Shown here: positions 25,854-43,626 of the stretch, in pieces
How positions within the stretch are numbered: the first letter of the stretch is position 1
How the letters are laid out: each line of letters opens with the position of its first letter
Sequence record: NC_019717.1
Reading direction: 5' to 3' (one strand)
Origin: Enterobacteria phage HK225
Length of the DNA stretch: 45,366 bases
Translations under genes and position numbers: made by a program
The notes under the pieces: model-generated
Databases searched by the model: none
Told to the model about the DNA's origin: nothing
What the model saw: only the letters and a program-made list of their open reading frames with translations

Positions 25854-28800
25854 TTATGCCTGAGTACGCAGCGCTTCAAGGCGGCGCAGGTCGAAGTCGT
25901 TCAGTTCGTCGGTGTAGTCAGCAGTGATTGGCGCTGGCCATTCACCTGTGTCGAATCCGGTTGCGATATTGCGCATCGCTTTGCGGTACTCGAGCATACC
26001 CAGCTCCAGTAGTTCAGCGGATGCCTCGATGATGGCGATCCAGTGGTAGTTCTCGTCTTTGTTGACGAAAATCCAGAAGAACTGATCCAGCGCTGCGGTT
26101 TCGCAGTACATAGCCGCGCTCAGGTGATAATCACGTTCAATAATTTCCCGGTGTAGCCTGGCGCGCAGGCTTTCCTGCTTAACATTCCACATGCTGATGG
26201 TTTTCAGGTCAGCACCGATACGCACGCCGTCTAGGTCGATCTCAAGGTCAGGGCGCACACGAACTTCCAGTCCCGTCTCCTCGTCAAAGCCAAAGTAGCT
26301 CACCTCAACGGCGCGGCTCGGGTGGGTTAGCAGCATGCCTGCGGTCGGGTGCGAGAGCAGTGCTGACTGAATTGCCTGCGCGGTGGCAAGTTGCTGGTGG
26401 GTAACCAGCACTTTCCCTTCCGGGTTGTTGCGCCACGCATCGAGCAGCTCGTCGGCGAACACTGCATCTGGTTTGACTGCCTTCACGGCCTGAATCAGAT
26501 CGGCCTTCGTGCCAGAGACTTTCAGCGGTTGCAGCTTCTGAGCTTCCTGCGCGACCAGGTCAGGATTGATAATCGCAAGTTGTTCGAGTAGTGCGTCGCG
26601 GCTGCCGCTGGTTTTAATCTGCGCTGGCAGGGTGGCGTTGTACTCTTTGATGCACGCCTTCATTGCTGTTGCTGTCTTCTTCTGATCTGCATCGATACGT
26701 TGGAATTCAGCTGGCAGCGCCATATAGTTCTGCGCCGTTTCATCCAGGCTAGCGCCCAGCGGCACCAGCGCTGGCAGGGTGGCGTTGTATTCATCCAGCA
26801 AAGCTTTGATATCGTCTGCGCTCAGTTGCGCTGGCAGGCTGGCGTTGTACTCATCAATAAACGCGCGGATCGTTGCCGTGGTGGTAAATGCACCTTCCGG
26901 AATTACGGGTTCAACGCTAAATTCTTCATCGAGCTGTTCTGGCTGCAACGCCAGCGCATGTACCAGGTTTCCCATGTCCAGCACTGAGGAGCGCTCTTTG
27001 ACGATGGTTTTCTCAACGTGGCGCGCATTGAAGTACATCAGCGAAACGCGCGCATCTTTTACCTGGGTGGAACTGATGCCGTTGGCAGCGTGGTAAACCT
27101 CGTTCGGCAGACCTTCATAGCGCCCAGGCTCGAAGTAATCGGGGTAAAAAACAGCTGGTTCGTCAGATTGCGCTTCTGGCTCGGTTTGTGCTGCAACTGG
27201 TTCGGTTTGGCTTACAGAATCGCTATTTTTGGCGACAGAATCCGTATTCTGGTTTACATCGTCCTTCTGGCTGGTATCTGACTCTTCACCAGACTCCAGA
27301 CTGCTTTCGCCTGGCTGTACTTCATCACCAACATTTTTTTCATCACTGACAGTTTCTTGAACCTGCACATTGCTGGTGGTTTCCGTAGCCTGTTTCGTGC
27401 CATGAGTTGCTGAGTTCTGCAGTAAAGCCGTAACGTCGAATATTCCGTTGCCGACATTTTTAACCAGTTCTTGTTCGACTTTCTGCGGTTGTGCTGCCGC
27501 TTCCTCTGCGCGGCGGCGTGCTCCTTCTTCACGCACGCGTTGCAGGTTCTCTTCGTGAGTGCAGAAGGATTTGCGCGGAGACTCCTTACCTTCAGGTTGG
27601 GGAATTTCCTGTGCTGCGGGTTCAGCCTCATGCAACGGCAATAACTCGACCGCGGAATTGAACGCGGCTGTCATGGTCTGGTTAACAAATTCCAGGTGAG
27701 CGACAGGAGTTAAATGAATATTTTCCGGTGCGATACGTACCAGGTTAAAAATAGCCGTGCGGTTAACACCCAGAACGCCTGGCTGATTGCGCAGGATGTT
27801 GCTCCATGATTTCCATGGTTCTTCTTTTTTGGTCACGATTTCTTTAGCGCGACGAAGAATGCTGCCCGGGATCTCGAAGTGGTTGAAGTCCATAGGCAGA
27901 AGGGCACACGCAATCTCTAAATCGAGAGTGTCCAGTGTGTGGTGTGCGTCAGGTCCACGGTCAGTGACGTAACCGCCGTCGGCATTAGTGCCGGAATCAG
28001 TACGCTGCACACTACTGATGCGATTACCGGCGGCCCATTCGCGAACGAGGATACCGCGGTCGATGTGATCTGTAGCGAACCACAATTTCAAAAACTGGAT
28101 TAAGGTTGCGAGTTCAGGGATTTTTCCATCGACAGGGAAGACTTTCTTAACGGCATTCACGACTTTATGAATATCGTGCTCAATGGCTTTTTTGAATGCT
28201 TCCACATTCTCAGCTGCCAGCAGCAGGTTCTGGACGTACGCGTCATCGGTGTCCATCTCAAGGCGGACAATCTCATTTTTCTGCCCTGCGTCGATGTGAT
28301 AGAGATATTCACCATCACCGATGAACTGAGCCAGTACGCGCTGGCGGAATGGCAGGGTGGCAACAACGATCAGGTTCGGTTGCTGTGTCTGCTGGGATTG
28401 CTCTTCGGTATCGACTTCACCATCAACGACGCCACCTTCTGCCCGGCCGTTCTCGTCGGTCTGGATACCGTCCTCAACAGTGAGATCTTGACCCGTTGTA
28501 ACGTCAGCAGCGTTGCTGGTTTCAGTTTTGAGCAACTGCAACTTACCACTGCGCCAGTCTTCTACCAGTTGATTGCGGTCACCGGCATCGGTGTTCACCC
28601 AGTCAGACATGAATGCAGCGATCAATCTTGGTTCGTGCTCTTCGTCTGGTGTGAAAATGTCCTTAACCGCCCGAATCATTTTCCACTCAGCATTCAGGCT
28701 GAGTTTGGCGGTCGCGGGCACATCGTTCCTTGCCACAAGCAGGCTATGGAGATATGTATTGCCTTCATCCAGTGACATTTCGCTGGCAGCCAACTGCTGC

Positions 28801-29243
28801 TCTTTAGTGACGTGGGTTTGGTATTTATCGTTCATCAGATGGACGGCAAAGCGGACCGCTGGAGTACGGTTTTCAACCGGGACAATTTCGGACGCAGTCG
28901 CATCTTCAACGATTACGGTCGGAGTAGGTGTGTAGGGGGCGTCAACGGAACCAGTAGACACACCAGCGGCTTTTGGCAGCCAGGTGCGCCCATCGTCCTG
29001 AAGCTCGTAGCGATCACACCAGGTAAAATCAACTTCACCTTCTTTCGGCAGGCCGTCGACAACTGGGAAATCAGTGCGAATCGGTTTGGCGTAGTCCTTA
29101 CCCCGACCTGTTTCGATACCTGCATCTTCCAGCGCAACATCCAGCATCAGATTGGCGCGAGCCTCGGTTTTAGCAGTGAACCAGACCACTGCATCTTGCT
29201 TTCCGGATTTCTGAGTGGCTTTAACCACATTAAAGAATTCCAT
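25854..29243 (-). CDS. recE: RecE-like exonuclease VIII with long N-terminal extension
   Basis: 1129-aa ORF with GAGGA SD, directly upstream of recT; acidic low-complexity middle; C-terminal region consistent with a RecE-type nuclease domain; internal triplicated EYNATLPA module. Confidence 0.7.
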   Translation of the reverse strand: MEFFNVVKATQKSGKQDAVVWFTAKTEARANLMLDVALEDAGIETGRGKDYAKPIRTDFPVVDGLPKEGEVDFTWCDRYELQDDGRTWLPKAAGVSTGSVDAPYTPTPTVIVEDATASEIVPVENRTPAVRFAVHLMNDKYQTHVTKEQQLAASEMSLDEGNTYLHSLLVARNDVPATAKLSLNAEWKMIRAVKDIFTPDEEHEPRLIAAFMSDWVNTDAGDRNQLVEDWRSGKLQLLKTETSNAADVTTGQDLTVEDGIQTDENGRAEGGVVDGEVDTEEQSQQTQQPNLIVVATLPFRQRVLAQFIGDGEYLYHIDAGQKNEIVRLEMDTDDAYVQNLLLAAENVEAFKKAIEHDIHKVVNAVKKVFPVDGKIPELATLIQFLKLWFATDHIDRGILVREWAAGNRISSVQRTDSGTNADGGYVTDRGPDAHHTLDTLDLEIACALLPMDFNHFEIPGSILRRAKEIVTKKEEPWKSWSNILRNQPGVLGVNRTAIFNLVRIAPENIHLTPVAHLEFVNQTMTAAFNSAVELLPLHEAEPAAQEIPQPEGKESPRKSFCTHEENLQRVREEGARRRAEEAAAQPQKVEQELVKNVGNGIFDVTALLQNSATHGTKQATETTSNVQVQETVSDEKNVGDEVQPGESSLESGEESDTSQKDDVNQNTDSVAKNSDSVSQTEPVAAQTEPEAQSDEPAVFYPDYFEPGRYEGLPNEVYHAANGISSTQVKDARVSLMYFNARHVEKTIVKERSSVLDMGNLVHALALQPEQLDEEFSVEPVIPEGAFTTTATIRAFIDEYNASLPAQLSADDIKALLDEYNATLPALVPLGASLDETAQNYMALPAEFQRIDADQKKTATAMKACIKEYNATLPAQIKTSGSRDALLEQLAIINPDLVAQEAQKLQPLKVSGTKADLIQAVKAVKPDAVFADELLDAWRNNPEGKVLVTHQQLATAQAIQSALLSHPTAGMLLTHPSRAVEVSYFGFDEETGLEVRVRPDLEIDLDGVRIGADLKTISMWNVKQESLRARLHREIIERDYHLSAAMYCETAALDQFFWIFVNKDENYHWIAIIEASAELLELGMLEYRKAMRNIATGFDTGEWPAPITADYTDELNDFDLRRLEALRTQA
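26621..26852 (-). repeat. three copies of a 25-bp repeat inside recE
   Basis: + strand GCGCTGGCAGG(G/C)TGGCGTTGTA(C/T)TC at 26621, 26768 and 26828. Confidence 0.85.
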
Positions 29244-29358
29244 GTGAGATCCTCATTTTTGGGTGTTAGAATCCCCGGACCATTGATAGCGCCCATTGGG
29301 TTAACTTTGGTTTTAATGTTGTTTCCGGTGTAACTTTGGTCGGTGAGGCCGGACATGG

Positions 29359-29385
29359 CGGGCCCACTTCGGTGGGCTTTCGCTT
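29359..29385 (+). terminator. hairpin at the 3' end of ORF 29384..29671 (terminator-like on + strand)
   Basis: GCCCAC-ttcg-GTGGGC followed by TTTCGCTT. Confidence 0.3.
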
Positions 29386-30155: not shown

Positions 30156-30314
30156 GATTTCCTCTTGGCCTTATCGCGGCGAACGGAACGGTTAATACAA
30201 GACTTCAACGCATTTATTCAGTGTTTCAATGGGCGGTGGATGGCCGCCGATTGTCATAACTAAGCCGCCTCGGTGAAGCGACTGAGGTATGAAAAAACCC
30301 GCCGTGGCGGGTCT

Positions 30315-30635
30315 TCAGAAATAGTCTTTATGGTCGTGCATCGCTCGCTGGAGGATCACCTTTGCATCTTCAAAGCTGGCAGATTCAAAAGCCTCTCTTA
30401 TGGCCTTAGCCAGGCAAGTCGCATCGCTTTCATAGTCATCAGCTCTGCTTTCCCAGTTTGATGCCTCTTCTTCAGCCTCATAAAGGCGATCGCCATACTC
30501 GCACTCGAGTTCCTGGCGCACTTCATCACGAAGCTTCTCCTTGATGATTTCGGAGGCTTCTTCAATCGGCATTGTTTCCAGAATCGTCTCTGGCTGATGA
30601 GTGCCGTATTTCAGTGAGATATCAGTAGCAAACAT
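30315..30635 (-). CDS. hypothetical acidic protein
   Basis: ATG at 30635 preceded by GGAGG; track ORF extends upstream without SD; acidic C-terminal half. Confidence 0.45.
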   Translation of the reverse strand: MFATDISLKYGTHQPETILETMPIEEASEIIKEKLRDEVRQELECEYGDRLYEAEEEASNWESRADDYESDATCLAKAIREAFESASFEDAKVILQRAMHDHKDYF

Positions 30636-30644
30636 GCAACCTCC

Positions 30645-30670
30645 AAAAAAATGCCCGCGCGCTGGCGGGC
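30645..30670 (-). terminator. intrinsic terminator inside the leftward early operon
   Basis: on the minus strand GCCCGC-cagcgc-GCGGGC followed by AUUUUUUU, immediately upstream of the next SD. Confidence 0.6.
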
Positions 30671-30782
30671 CAAGAAGACTTTTCCAATCCAACCAGAACA
30701 GGATCATCGTCTCCTGTGTGGTTGAGATGGCAGTATTACCATCACCAAGCATCGGCACCCGGTGCTTGAGGCTGGCTCTGTC

Positions 30783-30799
30783 GTTACCCGCTGATGCGG
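30783..30799 (-). repeat. intercistronic hairpin element GTTACCCGCTGATGCGG, copy 1
   Basis: 17-bp exact direct repeat of the element at 31005; small stem-loop CCGC-tgat-GCGG right after a gene stop. Confidence 0.8.
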
Positions 30800-30988
30800 T
30801 TATGTCTCATCGACGCATGGAAGTGATTTCCAGTCGATATCGTTTTTTGCCGAATCCCACAGGCCTTTCTTTTTGTACTTTTCTGAGCATGGAATGCAGA
30901 TGTTGTAAGGCCTGCCAACCATGTTTACAGATATTCTCTGCATCTCTTCAGATGCCAGAAAGTACCCACAGAATTGACACTTGTGCAT
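30800..30988 (-). CDS. hypothetical zinc-finger protein
   Basis: 62-aa ORF with GGAGAG SD; CxxC...CxxC. Confidence 0.45.
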   Translation of the reverse strand: MHKCQFCGYFLASEEMQRISVNMVGRPYNICIPCSEKYKKKGLWDSAKNDIDWKSLPCVDET

Positions 30989-31004
30989 ACGTACTCTCCA
31001 CTTA

Positions 31005-31021
31005 GTTACCCGCTGATGCGG
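31005..31021 (-). repeat. intercistronic hairpin element GTTACCCGCTGATGCGG, copy 2
   Basis: identical 17-mer 222 bp from copy 1. Confidence 0.8.
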
Positions 31022-31045
31022 GAGAAATGCTTTATCTATCAGCTT

Positions 31046-31258
31046 CTACAACTCATCACGAATCTGTGAGAGTGTGCTGATCGCCTGGTAATGACCGCGA
31101 CGCTGCTCTTCTGTTTTGAACGCACGCATATCGTCTTTTATCGATGCGATTGCCTTATTCAGAACTTCCACTTGCGCTTCTTTAATCGCCTGTTTGCGTG
31201 GCTTCTGACGCTTCTTAGGAAGGTCTCTTAAACACGCCGGAATGTATGTCTGAGTCAT
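31046..31258 (-). CDS. hypothetical basic protein, first gene of the leftward early operon (N position)
   Basis: 70-aa ORF with AAGAGGA SD; Lys/Arg-rich N-terminal third. Confidence 0.45.
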   Translation of the reverse strand: MTQTYIPACLRDLPKKRQKPRKQAIKEAQVEVLNKAIASIKDDMRAFKTEEQRRGHYQAISTLSQIRDEL

Positions 31259-31562
31259 AAAAAATCCTCTTGTGATTCAGCCCAGCCCACTCAACTTCGA
31301 ATGGACTGGAATAAATCTGTTTGCGCTTCGCACCTCTCATCCTGCCAGTGTTGCCCGTTCTCACGCCGTTATCGCTCTCGCGCGGGGATACTCTCTCACC
31401 GACCGGATCGCACCCGGTGATACAGCACGTTTTCGTGTAGGGGTCTTAACAGGTCATTGACGCTGTAAATCTGCATGTTGTTAAAAAGCAGGCGACTTAC
31501 TGTCCGCCGCTGGCTAACTTCGCTCAGCTGTCGATGTTTCGTTTCGATGGGATAATTAAACA

Positions 31563-31645
31563 TCATGTGGATTTATAGGTCAACACCTTGTGGATTTATT
31601 TTGTTGATTTAATCGTTTTTTGTTGATTTTTATGTTGATTTATTT
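31563..31645. promoter_or_regulatory. OL-like operator/promoter region with five direct 9-bp repeats
   Basis: ATGTGGATT / TTGT(G/T)GATT at about 31565, 31588, 31601, 31620 and 31632; same motif as in the cI-cro intergenic region. Confidence 0.55.
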
Positions 31646-31898: not shown

Positions 31899-31929
31899 AA
31901 ACCCGGCGCGGTGGCCGGGTTTATTTATT
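31897..31929. terminator. bidirectional intrinsic terminator
   Basis: AAAA-ACCCGGC-gcggtg-GCCGGGT-TTATTTATT between convergent genes. Confidence 0.7.
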
Positions 31930-32575
31930 GCTTAGGAGCTTGTTGTGATGACGATTGGTTAGTTGGAGCGCTCGTTAATGGTTGCTGTGTCGGTACCTGT
32001 ATTATAATTGGAGCCGGGCTGGTTACTGATGGTGACTTGTCATTGCCGGAGATAATCCAACTTGAGGCTAACATCACGCCAGACAGAATCACAGTAACTA
32101 AAGTCAAGCCAACGGCCATCGCCCACTGAGTCGTTGTAAGTCCCGTTTTCAAACCGCCGATTTCACCTTTAATTTCAGCAATACCTCTCTCAATAGAAGA
32201 AAATTGCTGAGTATAATAGGTTTTAAAGTCAGCTGATTCGCGACGCATTTCCGCAGCAATAGACTCTACCTCTGATTTGTTTTGTGAAAGCTTTGCGTCA
32301 AGTTCTTCTCTGGACATTCCGCTCACGCTTACCTCCAGGGTATCACTCTTCATCGCTACATCTTCCTTACTTGGGCGCAAACCCGTTTCGTCCATGGCGT
32401 ATGAAACTCTATTTGATACCTTAGCATCAATACCAATACTTTGGTACTGAGATGGATCCCCATAAGGAGAAACGGTTGTCGCTGCTAGGGTTGCACTAAC
32501 TATAATACTTGGAAGAACTGATGATGTTGTTCCTGAGGTAGGTTGAACTGAAGAAACTGGCTTCAGTCTTTCCAT
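31925..32575 (-). CDS. hypothetical membrane protein (S/T-rich N-terminus, coiled-coil, one TM, P/S/Q-rich C-tail)
   Basis: 216-aa ORF; hydrophobic AMAVGLTLVTVILSGVMLASSWII; AT-rich; start overlaps the upstream ORF by 13 nt. Confidence 0.5.
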   Translation of the reverse strand: MERLKPVSSVQPTSGTTSSVLPSIIVSATLAATTVSPYGDPSQYQSIGIDAKVSNRVSYAMDETGLRPSKEDVAMKSDTLEVSVSGMSREELDAKLSQNKSEVESIAAEMRRESADFKTYYTQQFSSIERGIAEIKGEIGGLKTGLTTTQWAMAVGLTLVTVILSGVMLASSWIISGNDKSPSVTSPAPIIIQVPTQQPLTSAPTNQSSSQQAPKQ

Positions 32576-32829
32576 AGCCCATTATCCCTGAGAGCTACCT
32601 GTAATGATTTTACTAATGCAACAGCTTGATCCGGGCTCATTGAGACTGACATGTTAGGGGTCAACTCAACTTTTACTTGGAAGCTATTCTTTCCTTGCTC
32701 ATCAGACTGCATGTGATGCTCAAATTCATGGCGGTAAAAAGTAATGATTGTTTCAGCACGATCAGGCGTAATAAGAACTGATGTGGCGGTCATGTGCTGA
32801 GGTATGATTTTAATAGTGTTATCTGACAT
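32563..32829 (-). CDS. hypothetical protein (88 aa from the SD-preceded ATG)
   Basis: track ORF 32563..32970; only the ATG at 32829 has a good SD (AAGGA); alternative starts at 32865 or 32871. Confidence 0.4.
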   Translation of the reverse strand: MSDNTIKIIPQHMTATSVLITPDRAETIITFYRHEFEHHMQSDEQGKNSFQVKVELTPNMSVSMSPDQAVALVKSLQVALRDNGLWKD

Positions 32830-33024
32830 AAGTATCCTTTTTGTTTCCTTAGTATTTTTTTGCATTGACATCAGAAATAGCGAATCCACAAGAGTATGAG
32901 TAAAGCTAATCAGTTTAGTGATACGGTGACTATTAAAGTGGTAAACCACATCAAAGCTCGCAGAGTGCATACCAGGCTGTCACACATGACAAAGTAACGA
33001 GGATGCCTGATCTCATAGCGCTCA

Positions 33025-43003: not shown

Positions 43004-43420
43004 TTAAGGGAGGGTTTTCATTACGCTATCAATCTCCCTTCCTTCAAATCTTGAAGTCCAGCCGCAGGAGCCGCAATGGTAAGGAAAGTCATCGAACCCG
43101 CTACCGACCTGTTTAAGACAGTTGGGGCAATAAACCGCGCTGATATACCCACCCGCGGGATTTTTTCTAAAGGCCGCACCCATGTGCTCGACAAACTCAT
43201 CCTTTGCCCGATAAGCCGCTATTTCCTTCTCAAGTTCTACGTTCTTGGCTTTCGCCTCGGCAAGTTCTGCTATGGTGGCAGCATGGGCTTTTTGAAGTAC
43301 GTCGATCTGCTCTCCAATGAAAGCGATGCGCTCGCGCAGGACCTCGTTACTTTGCACAGCAGAAAGCGCGCCGATCCCGTTTTTAAGGGACGCGATAAGT
43401 AATCCTACATCCATGGTCAT
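43004..43420 (-). CDS. hypothetical coiled-coil protein with C-terminal zinc ribbon, antisense to the late operon
   Basis: 138-aa ORF; CPNC...CGSC; ATG overlaps the stop of the upstream minus-strand ORF (ATGA). Confidence 0.5.
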   Translation of the reverse strand: MTMDVGLLIASLKNGIGALSAVQSNEVLRERIAFIGEQIDVLQKAHAATIAELAEAKAKNVELEKEIAAYRAKDEFVEHMGAAFRKNPAGGYISAVYCPNCLKQVGSGFDDFPYHCGSCGWTSRFEGREIDSVMKTLP

Positions 43421-43626
43421 TCCCTAATTGTCTGTGGAATGACCAATTTAGCAATTTCCTTTGTCTGTGGAAAGCAGGGAAACCACGCGCCGGGCGTGGA
43501 TAAATATCCCGGTATTGAATCGACTGTTGGCTGCCGCTTGGCGGCCTTTTTCATTTCAGGCTCACGGGAATCATCCGCTACGTGCTTTGTTGATAAATCC
43601 AGCCCGTGAAGCCTGAGCCTTTTCAT
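43417..43626 (-). CDS. hypothetical protein (uncertain start), upstream partner of the zinc-ribbon gene
   Basis: 69-aa ORF without a clear SD; contains the 12-bp direct repeat TTGTCTGTGGAA twice (43428 and 43461). Confidence 0.3.
   Translation of the reverse strand: MKRLRLHGLDLSTKHVADDSREPEMKKAAKRQPTVDSIPGYLSTPGAWFPCFPQTKEIAKLVIPQTIRE

Follow-up and report, generated by a model that had tools for sequence, protein, structure and literature searches.

In phage lambda the leftward early operon runs in the order nutL, an RNase III-sensitive stem just before the ribosome-binding site (RBS) of N, N itself, and the terminator tL1. Short conserved linker or boundary sequences reportedly occur at the mosaic junctions of lambdoid phages, as told in the HK97/HK022 and HK620 genome papers. 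Synthetic 5' untranslated region (5'-UTR) insulators of the RiboJ type join a ribozyme or processing site to a hairpin and an RBS. We have analysed the genome of Enterobacteria phage HK225 (NC_019717.1; 45,366 nucleotides (nt), hereafter the window), a phi80/mEp237-like lambdoid phage, in which an exact 17-bp element, GTTACCCGCTGATGCGG (CCGCATCAGCGGGTAAC on the leftward strand; hereafter the 17-mer), lies twice in the leftward early (pL) operon. It is well supported that the 17-mer is the core of a conserved leader-to-gene junction of phi80/HK639-type phages, and that this junction heads a hypervariable first-gene slot. Viewing the 17-mer as a private repeat of one genome missed that it is part of this widely conserved landmark.

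The 17-mer is the invariant core of an island of about 48 nt that reads CCAAAGCATTTCTC-CCGCATCAGCGGG-TAAC-GACAGAGGGTAAGGnnATG, or, written around the repeat, CCAAAGCATTTCTC-CCGCATCAGCGGGTAAC-GACAGAGGGTAAGGnnATG; at the RNA level it becomes CCAAAGCATTTCTC / CCCGC-AUCA-GCGGG / UAAC / GACAGAGGGUAAGGnnAUG. The first-pass annotation had named absence of the motif from related phages as a result that would speak against it, and the opposite was found: among the matches listed, more than 120 viral contigs carry the exact 17-mer. Context comparisons were drawn from these listed matches and comprise 120 unique contexts. Conservation around the 17-mer is near-total from -14 to +34 and at background level outside these limits; GCATTTCTC is kept in 113 of the 120 contexts and [G/T]AC[A/G]GAG in 108. 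In phi80 the island directly precedes the gene annotated N, in HK639 it carries one loop change (AUCA to AUCU), and it is also present in Enterobacter phages and one Klebsiella phage, with CobraSix, KO-TP1 and BHUENT6 among the carriers. Among complete Escherichia coli genomes 115 of 5426 have the island, all at 94% identity or more over 52 nt, and genomes of Citrobacter, Enterobacter and Scandinavium have it with an identical hairpin. The element also stands in the phi80 remnant that DH5alpha/DH10B contain. A search for diverged hairpin versions in the fetched loci, the E. coli genomes, the phage collection and species-level genomes returned a single loop variant, that of HK639. In the literature, a search for the sequence turned it up solely as an E. 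coli type I-E CRISPR repeat variant, and not in a junction context; the junction element was not found described before.

What lies on either side of the island is highly diverse. The upstream sequences fall into at least 27 clusters of leader or open reading frame (ORF) context, and the first downstream ORF belongs, among the matches listed, to about 50 unrelated families of small proteins, many of them acidic. Forty-five of these 50 families were scanned, five very short or doubtful ORFs having been dropped and a 106-amino-acid (aa) ORF having replaced its upstream extension. The PHROG scan assigned the 45 proteins to 27 families, one protein each, and 24 of the 25 families listed are undescribed; the Pfam scan returned DUF2528, Nmad5 and DUF551 only. 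BLAST homology to other prophages begins or ends exactly at the 17-mer copies. The island qualifies as a mosaic-junction linker, for which a short, conserved, non-coding stretch has to recur in many phages where non-homologous segments meet. The exact junction points vary and may fall after TAAC, after GACAGAGG, left of AGCATTTCTC or directly at CCGC.

A scan of the window found the 17-mer exactly twice, at 30783-30799 and 31005-31021, and no further copy with up to three mismatches on either strand. Copy 1 (31021-31005, minus strand) starts 24 nt past the TAG (31048-31046) of a 70-aa ORF, and copy 2 (30799-30783, minus) abuts the TAA (30802-30800) of a 62-aa ORF; these positions agree with the first-pass annotation, which had seen a 17-bp element twice, each time downstream of a gene stop. 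Its placing of the element between cistrons of the leftward early operon is likewise upheld by the orientation of the copies and by alignment with the phi80 pL region. By our own calculation about 0.06 exact 17-mer repeats are expected in 45 kb of random sequence, and 1 of 100 shuffled windows reached two or more matches at up to three mismatches, so the within-window statistic taken alone is only suggestive. We count the repeat as real because the 17-mer is conserved elsewhere, and its conservation in other phages and genomes rules out a chance repeat. Copy 1 folds as CCCGC-AUCA-GCGGG with 5 bp (-9 kcal/mol, z = -2.8). The 17-mer hairpins do not have the U-tract of an intrinsic terminator, copy 1 being followed by UAACUAAG and copy 2 by UAACGACA, and neither appeared among the predictions of a terminator scan of the window. 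Sites for IHF, LexA and CRP and the Chi site were considered as the identity of the 17-mer and, judged by eye only, none fits.

The presence of two copies is explained by a cassette. Copy 1 retains the left half of the island (31005..31033, minus: AAAGCATTTCTC, the hairpin CCCGC-AUCA-GCGGG at 31022-31009 and TAAC), after which comes the RBS of the 62-aa ORF itself. Copy 2 is without the left half, TAA abutting CCGC, and keeps the right half (30776..30799, minus: CCGCATCAGCGGGTAAC plus GACAGAG). Because the copies hold complementary halves of the island, which is typically undivided in relatives, we read the 62-aa ORF plus one 17-mer as a 222-bp cassette inside a single junction. This ORF (30800..30988, minus; phrog_19863; RBS GGAGAG at 30999-30994) lies between the copies and encodes a zinc-ribbon-like CxxC...CxxC protein. 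The 222-bp spacing of two copies recurs in four other loci (L002, L003, L099 and L113), with the same junction sequences and different neighbours; in E. coli G3/10 and EC09 the 62-aa ORF is bracketed by two copies with other sequence outside. In E. coli KCJ3K291 (L001) the 70-aa ORF is followed by a single copy, which has the left flank of copy 1, the right flank of copy 2 and a different next gene. The 70-aa ORF (31046..31258, minus; phrog_5305) is itself an optional cassette between leader and junction: among the matches listed it is present in 12 of 120 viral loci, and relatives with the same leader that are without it have ...GGGCTGAAT joined straight to TAAGCATTTCTC. No named function came from PHROGs, Pfam or NCBIfam for any of the 70-, 62- and 106-aa proteins. 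Since the junctions of the 62-aa cassette are identical wherever it was found, the sequences point to one origin, after which the cassette spread by exchange within the identical stretches at its flanks. We regard the junction and the origin of the cassette as well supported, the RNA role discussed below being one that we infer. In another related locus (L046 7950-8250, minus) an ORF ends exactly at the left edge of the island (...TTTGGGCATCTTTAGCATTTCAC-CCGC); by eye its product looks like an HNH/AP2-type homing endonuclease, and a mobile endonuclease gene may have been inserted beside a conserved target-like sequence in some phages.

Upstream of the junction lies a structured leader. The pL promoter (31555..31583, minus; -35 TTGACC at 31583-31578, -10 TTTAAT at 31560-31555) aligns base for base with pL of phi80 (JX871397), and a repeat search of the window detected operator repeats at it. 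The leader from 31583 to 31340 is almost identical to the phi80 region annotated pL/nutL, the comparison covering L004 7490-7960. It includes the boxA-like sequence TGCTTTTTAACAA (31478..31490, minus), which matches the annotated 'nutL boxA' of phi80 and which we take to resemble the rrn boxA; a hairpin, CACGAAAACGTG (31426..31437, minus), that matches the phi80 'nutL core'; and a conserved 59-nt block. For most relatives, folding predicts a long-range helix of about 20 bp whose 3' strand is made by the 12 nt to the left of the 17-mer; in it GAAUGUUUUGG pairs with CCAAAGCAUUU over 11 bp, including two G-U pairs, followed by a bulge of 1-2 nt and a further 7-10 bp. The sequence of these outer 7-10 bp differs by phage type with complementarity kept, cognate arms pairing at -15.9 kcal/mol as against -9.1 kcal/mol for non-cognate arms. 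In an alignment of 22 sequences, 94% of the helix cells are paired, compared with 38-46% when the partner strand is slid; seven pairs have changed on both sides, and covariation is 0.224 against 0.081 in shuffled alignments, none of 500 shuffles being as high. Because of the G-U pairs, the helix is specific to the pL-sense RNA. It encloses a variable domain of less than 100 to about 190 nt, and the 17-mer hairpin begins 2 nt past it.

The leader type of the window has another 5' strand, GAGAGGUGC (31338-31330), which pairs with GCAUUUCUC (31030-31022). In relatives with no 70-aa ORF (L009, L012, L016 and L019) this alternative helix of 9 bp closes a 60-nt hairpin domain in predicted folds. The corresponding feature of the window is GAGAGGTGC (31330..31338, minus), a candidate 5' partner of GCATTTCTC (31030-31022); the GAGAGGUGC/GCAUUUCUC pairing in the window itself is one that we only infer. 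Set against the approximately 20 bp of continuous or near-continuous double-stranded RNA that serves as the criterion for RNase III, the 17-mer hairpin has 5 bp, the helix of relatives 11 plus 7-10 bp, and the window's partner pairing 9 bp. Between putL and the leader helix of HK639, ORF45 (L126 2013-2360) is annotated on the pL-sense strand. The part of E. coli EC09 that matches it (L003 2566-2745) is annotated in RefSeq as 'ECs_2282 family putative zinc-binding protein' on the opposite strand; one record probably has the strand wrong.

Downstream of copy 2, the canonical intrinsic terminator that the first-pass annotation had placed between this copy and the next gene (terminator 1; 30645..30670, minus) proved sound: GCCCGC-CAGCGC-GCGGGC (30670-30653) forms a 6-bp all-GC stem and is followed by A and U7 (A plus the T7 run, 30652-30645). 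Terminator 1 is invariant in 15 loci and has the position of tL1 in lambda and phi80. The 106-aa acidic ORF (30315..30635, minus; phrog_13002; ATG at 30635) has its RBS, GGAGG (30644-30640), right after the U-tract, and directly after this ORF stands a second terminator that had been overlooked (terminator 2; 30292..30311, minus: CCCGCCACGGCGGG at 30311-30298 plus T6 at 30297-30292; -15 kcal/mol, z = -3.95). Its CCCGC/GCGGG stem is that of the 17-mer hairpin. Both structures (30670-30645 and 30311-30292) are GC-rich stem-loops followed by a U-tract. Terminators related to terminator 2 bound other small cassettes in L001 and L046, as if terminators, too, were shared module boundaries. From copy 2 to terminator 1 runs a structured and apparently non-coding spacer of 105 nt (30671..30775, minus) with three predicted hairpins; spacer, copy 2 and terminator together fold with z = -2.77. 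The spacer is near-identical in 15 loci and is always followed by the same terminator and 106-aa gene; in some of these loci this module follows the junction directly with no ORF between. Terminator 1 thus belongs to the next conserved module (spacer, terminator, 106-aa gene), in which the spacer could be a small RNA that ends at the terminator or a leader for the 106-aa gene. A leader peptide or attenuator in the spacer was considered and rejected: the ORF from GTG 30758 is in frame through terminator 1 and has no RBS, and the PHROG family starts at ATG 30635. An Rfam match to the Trp leader is weak (E = 1) and at chance level. Beyond both terminators lie kil (30155-29949), recE (29243-25854) and recT (25848-24730). 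The RecE-like exonuclease (25854-29243, minus) has 1129 aa with a long, acidic, low-complexity central region; the RecE of Rac is much shorter, at about 866 aa.

We think it fairly probable that the island acts in two ways, as RNA punctuation at the end of the leader and as a patch of DNA homology for the exchange of first-slot genes. On the transcript, it would end the structured leader, and the RNA may be processed there, as at the RNase III stem ahead of N in lambda; processed 5' ends would then fall within AAAGCAUUUCU or at the base of the hairpin. The small GC hairpin would insulate or stabilise the message, and UAA stops in two frames, followed by an RBS, would serve any gene that comes next. 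Of the roles that the first-pass annotation had offered for the hairpins, that of processing site or stabiliser is plausible. On the DNA, the identity of the island between phages would offer homology for swapping first-slot genes. Read-through past both terminators would be set up at the upstream pL leader and not at the 17-mer hairpins.

Several observations weigh against this proposal. The hairpin of copy 2 has 4 bp only (CCGC/GCGG; -6.6 kcal/mol) and is no more stable than shuffles; copy 2 may be a passive scar. The hairpin is without variation besides the HK639 loop change, and covariation is thus uninformative on whether structure or sequence is under selection. The strands of the alternative helix lie about 300 nt apart in the window, and their pairing is absent from the minimum-free-energy fold. 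Rfam 15 gave no match at gathering score at the element or leader in the window and 12 related loci, and a permissive search up to E = 5 gave chance-level matches only. A generic insulator poorly explains why loop and UAAC are invariant across genera; this leaves room for a specific binding partner, and the invariance of the loop appears to fit a sequence-specific partner better than an insulator.

Among the other explanations, it is unlikely, with still an appreciable chance of being right, that the island is a passive recombination linker or scar, conserved as exchange homology only, in which the hairpin has no RNA function and copy 2 is an insertion footprint. The island does stand exactly at homology breakpoints on both sides, junction positions are variable, and the hairpin, marginal in copy 2, shows no covariation. 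However, recombination alone does not hold a 48-nt stretch almost unchanged in elements of E. coli, Enterobacter, Citrobacter, Scandinavium and Klebsiella whose surroundings diverge; the left part of the island is demonstrably a strand of an RNA helix, with covariation and G-U pairs, and the right part is an RBS at fixed spacing from ATG. A more active role in DNA exchange would be that of an integron-like site, the 17-mer with its palindromic 5-4-5 core serving as attachment site for small circular gene cassettes. Integration of a 222-bp circle would formally give what is seen, the 62-aa ORF and a 17-mer flanked by exact 17-bp direct repeats, and gene diversity at this one site is extreme. 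We nevertheless hold such a site to be very improbable. An integron attC/attI system would have a partner tyrosine recombinase, arrays and a fixed crossover, but the annotations show no dedicated recombinase in the stretch from the immunity region to the recombination genes (L001-L003, phi80 and HK639), no locus among the matches listed has more than two copies or a cassette array, most first-slot genes have no 17-mer after them, and junction points are heterogeneous. The one junction common to all 62-aa cassettes agrees with their having arisen once. Just as improbable is a hairpin that mimics the type I-E CRISPR repeat, whether it works as an RNA anti-CRISPR of the solitary-repeat kind or is processed by CasE (Cas6e) at the head of an anti-defence gene slot. 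Solitary-repeat RNA anti-CRISPRs are known (PMC10651486), and the 14-nt core CCCGCAUCAGCGGG matches exactly, and in like orientation, the core of GTGTTCCCCGCATCAGCGGGGATAAACCG, an E. coli I-E repeat variant that occurs naturally (cited in PMC9782134). Queried with one extra 3' base, this variant matched at 99% or more in at least 1196 genomes of E. coli, MG1655 among them; against that repeat copy 1 reaches a score of 29, with 27 the best of 20 shuffles, and many downstream proteins are small and acidic. Yet the likeness is confined to the hairpin (20 of 29 ungapped positions), while a full I-E repeat has about 29 nt, a 6-bp stem and the AUAAACCG handle; here the element is without the bottom C-G pair by the CasE cleavage site and does not conserve the handle. 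The CCCGC/GCGGG stem also occurs in terminator 2 of the window, leaving only the 4-nt loop extra, the similarity of another repeat-like leader stretch (31396-31352) to the canonical repeat falls in the range that shuffles reach, and the element is absent from the sequences in the supplements of PMC10651486.

There is also a slim chance that the element is a recognition site for an antitermination or other regulatory protein, whether boxB-like or bound by a conserved host RNA-binding protein. Stem, loop and UAAC flank are invariant across genera, the element lies in an early operon upstream of two terminators, and the phi80 copy comes immediately before the gene annotated N. The first-pass annotation had offered recognition by an N-like factor as one role for the hairpins, and the evidence does not support it. 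A search of the rightward operon, which that annotation had proposed as a check, gave no match at up to three mismatches, and the repeat search of the window found no leader sequence shared with the pR operon beyond the operators. No boxA adjoins either copy, and what stands just before them is not boxA-like; from the sole boxA-like sequence (31490-31478) to copy 1 the distance is about 455 nt, and this sequence and the hairpin corresponding to the phi80 nutL core stand some 400-470 nt upstream. In tblastn searches the window has no homolog of phi80 N or lambda N, and of the 79 related loci that extend 3 kb or more downstream, 3 encode phi80 N and none lambda N. A nut site has an adjacent boxA, occurs once per early operon and goes with a cognate N, and none of this was found; a nut/boxB site was rejected on the absence from the right operon, the lack of N in the window and the rarity of N in relatives. 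The phi80 'N' itself belongs to a PHROG of unknown function and, by our own reading of the sequence, has no N-terminal arginine-rich motif. The HK639 record annotates a separate put-type antiterminator RNA besides the element, and some relatives run from element to terminator with no ORF between.

It is therefore unlikely that the 17-mers are sites where antitermination is set up. The earlier claim that transcription of recE and recT probably needs antitermination gains from the finding of two terminators in series upstream of kil, recE and recT, and the need itself stays plausible only: read-through is plausibly required because two intrinsic terminators precede these genes, as do the annotated tL1A and tL1B in phi80. 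The window keeps the phi80 'nutL' region almost unchanged yet has no homolog of phi80 'N'; it looks uncertain whether phi80 'N' is rightly annotated as an N-type antiterminator and how antitermination works in the group. Candidates for the factor are host Nus factors acting on the rrn-like boxA, an RNA element or an unrecognised protein.

The leaders of relatives hold a further feature: in related loci, and not in the window, stable host RNAs are often copied in the variable domain that the helix encloses. One domain type, in 25 loci (e.g. L003 2920-2966), has a 47-nt match to positions 237-283 of 16S ribosomal RNA (rRNA), that is helix 11 (E = 7.8e-8). In several types the domain finishes, 12 nt short of the 17-mer, with a canonical transfer RNA (tRNA) T-arm (GGUUCGAAUCC), an acceptor strand of 7 nt and NCCA; examples of tRNA-like or 16S-like domains are at L071 11356-11426, L030 8159-8228, L061 5402-5471 and L126 (HK639) 2430-2520. 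ARAGORN predicted tRNA-like genes immediately upstream of the element in a few relatives and no tRNA gene at the element of the window. The HK639-type unit has G1-C72, G2-C71, G3:U70, G4-C69 and A73, which by our own reading we take to be the alanine identity set, as in transfer-messenger RNA. These domains allow a wider reading, to which we give a low probability: the leader would be an undescribed modular RNA that imitates an rRNA operon, with the hairpin as a fixed 3' boundary signal and the enclosed domain released as a small decoy or mimic RNA. Along with the rrn-like boxA, a GU-rich arm and a CA-rich arm would form a processing stem around a swappable domain of tRNA acceptor/T-arm units ending in NCCA, some with G3:U70 and A73, or, in one type, of 16S helix 11. 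The message for a hypervariable first gene, probably one of anti-defence, would then take its 5' end from the hairpin, and in the window, as a derivative, ORFs would have replaced or split the unit.

Three other features of the window were recorded. The only Rfam match at gathering score is to isrB, an Hfq-binding small RNA (29285-29382, plus; 38.2 bits, the threshold being 35); it runs antisense to the leftward operon where a gap separates a 95-aa ORF from recE, and is also present in L003. At 43400-43560 (plus), beside a minus-strand 138-aa ORF, a control-region-like block comprises two TTGTCTGTGGAA repeats, a hairpin, CCACGCGCCGGGCGTGG then ATAAATATCCCGG, and an intrinsic terminator. The same block occurs immediately upstream of the leader helix in L046 (7170-7055, minus) and, in diverged form, in L003 and HK639, and from its sequence it looks like a mobile regulatory module. 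Between the immunity-region genes (31925-32970, minus) and a 79-aa ORF that converges on them from the plus strand, close upstream of pL, stands a perfect 9-bp bidirectional terminator at 31899-31922 (AAACCCGGC...GCCGGGTTT), with T-runs on both sides.

Terminator 1 is ordinary. What the hairpin adds is the junction landmark, and relatives add an undescribed covarying leader helix. An apparent private repeat has become a conserved cross-genus landmark that marks where the structured pL leader ends and the hypervariable early-gene slot starts. The island provides a sequence handle with which candidate host-takeover and anti-defence genes can be harvested from prophages, and the junction is a defined candidate for a natural expression insulator. 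In relatives the covarying helix, with inserts that resemble tRNA and 16S rRNA, may represent a class of phage non-coding RNA not described so far. For this phage group, the annotation of phi80 'N' and the mechanism of antitermination have been put in doubt.

Compared with known systems, the locus shares with integron attI/attC sites the use of one site by diverse small genes and one cassette with duplicated sites, and differs in having no integrase partner, no arrays and variable junction points. With the type I-E repeat and RNA anti-CRISPRs it shares a 14-nt core and its orientation; full-length similarity, the basal pair and the 5' handle are missing here. Like the early RNase III sites of T7 and stabilisers of the repetitive extragenic palindromic (REP) type, the 17-mers are repeated intercistronic hairpins of one operon with proposed processing or stabilising roles. 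Unlike the T7 sites, the junction hairpin, with 5 bp, is too short for RNase III, and unlike REP it is no host-wide family, occurring, in prophages only, in 2% of E. coli genomes, and is invariant in sequence rather than conserved in structure. In logic the junction resembles RiboJ-type insulators, which close off the upstream RNA and add a small hairpin and a standard RBS for context-independent expression, although here the element is natural and its cleavage and insulation are proposed from sequence. As in lambdoid mosaic linkers, a short conserved non-coding sequence stands at the edges of homology in many phages and is plausibly used for exchange; unlike them, the island is longer, crosses genera, is in part a covarying RNA helix strand and heads one hypervariable slot. 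Together with these two, the lambda N leader and tL1 are the closest match in kind, with pL, a boxA leader, a long stem before the first RBS, one or more small first genes and a terminator before the recombination genes. RNase III cleavage is a feature of the lambda N leader and, for the junction stem here, a proposal from analogy. The window differs from lambda in being without N, in the small hairpin that follows the stem and has no lambda counterpart, and in a first gene that may, in this group of phages, encode any of about 50 unrelated proteins.

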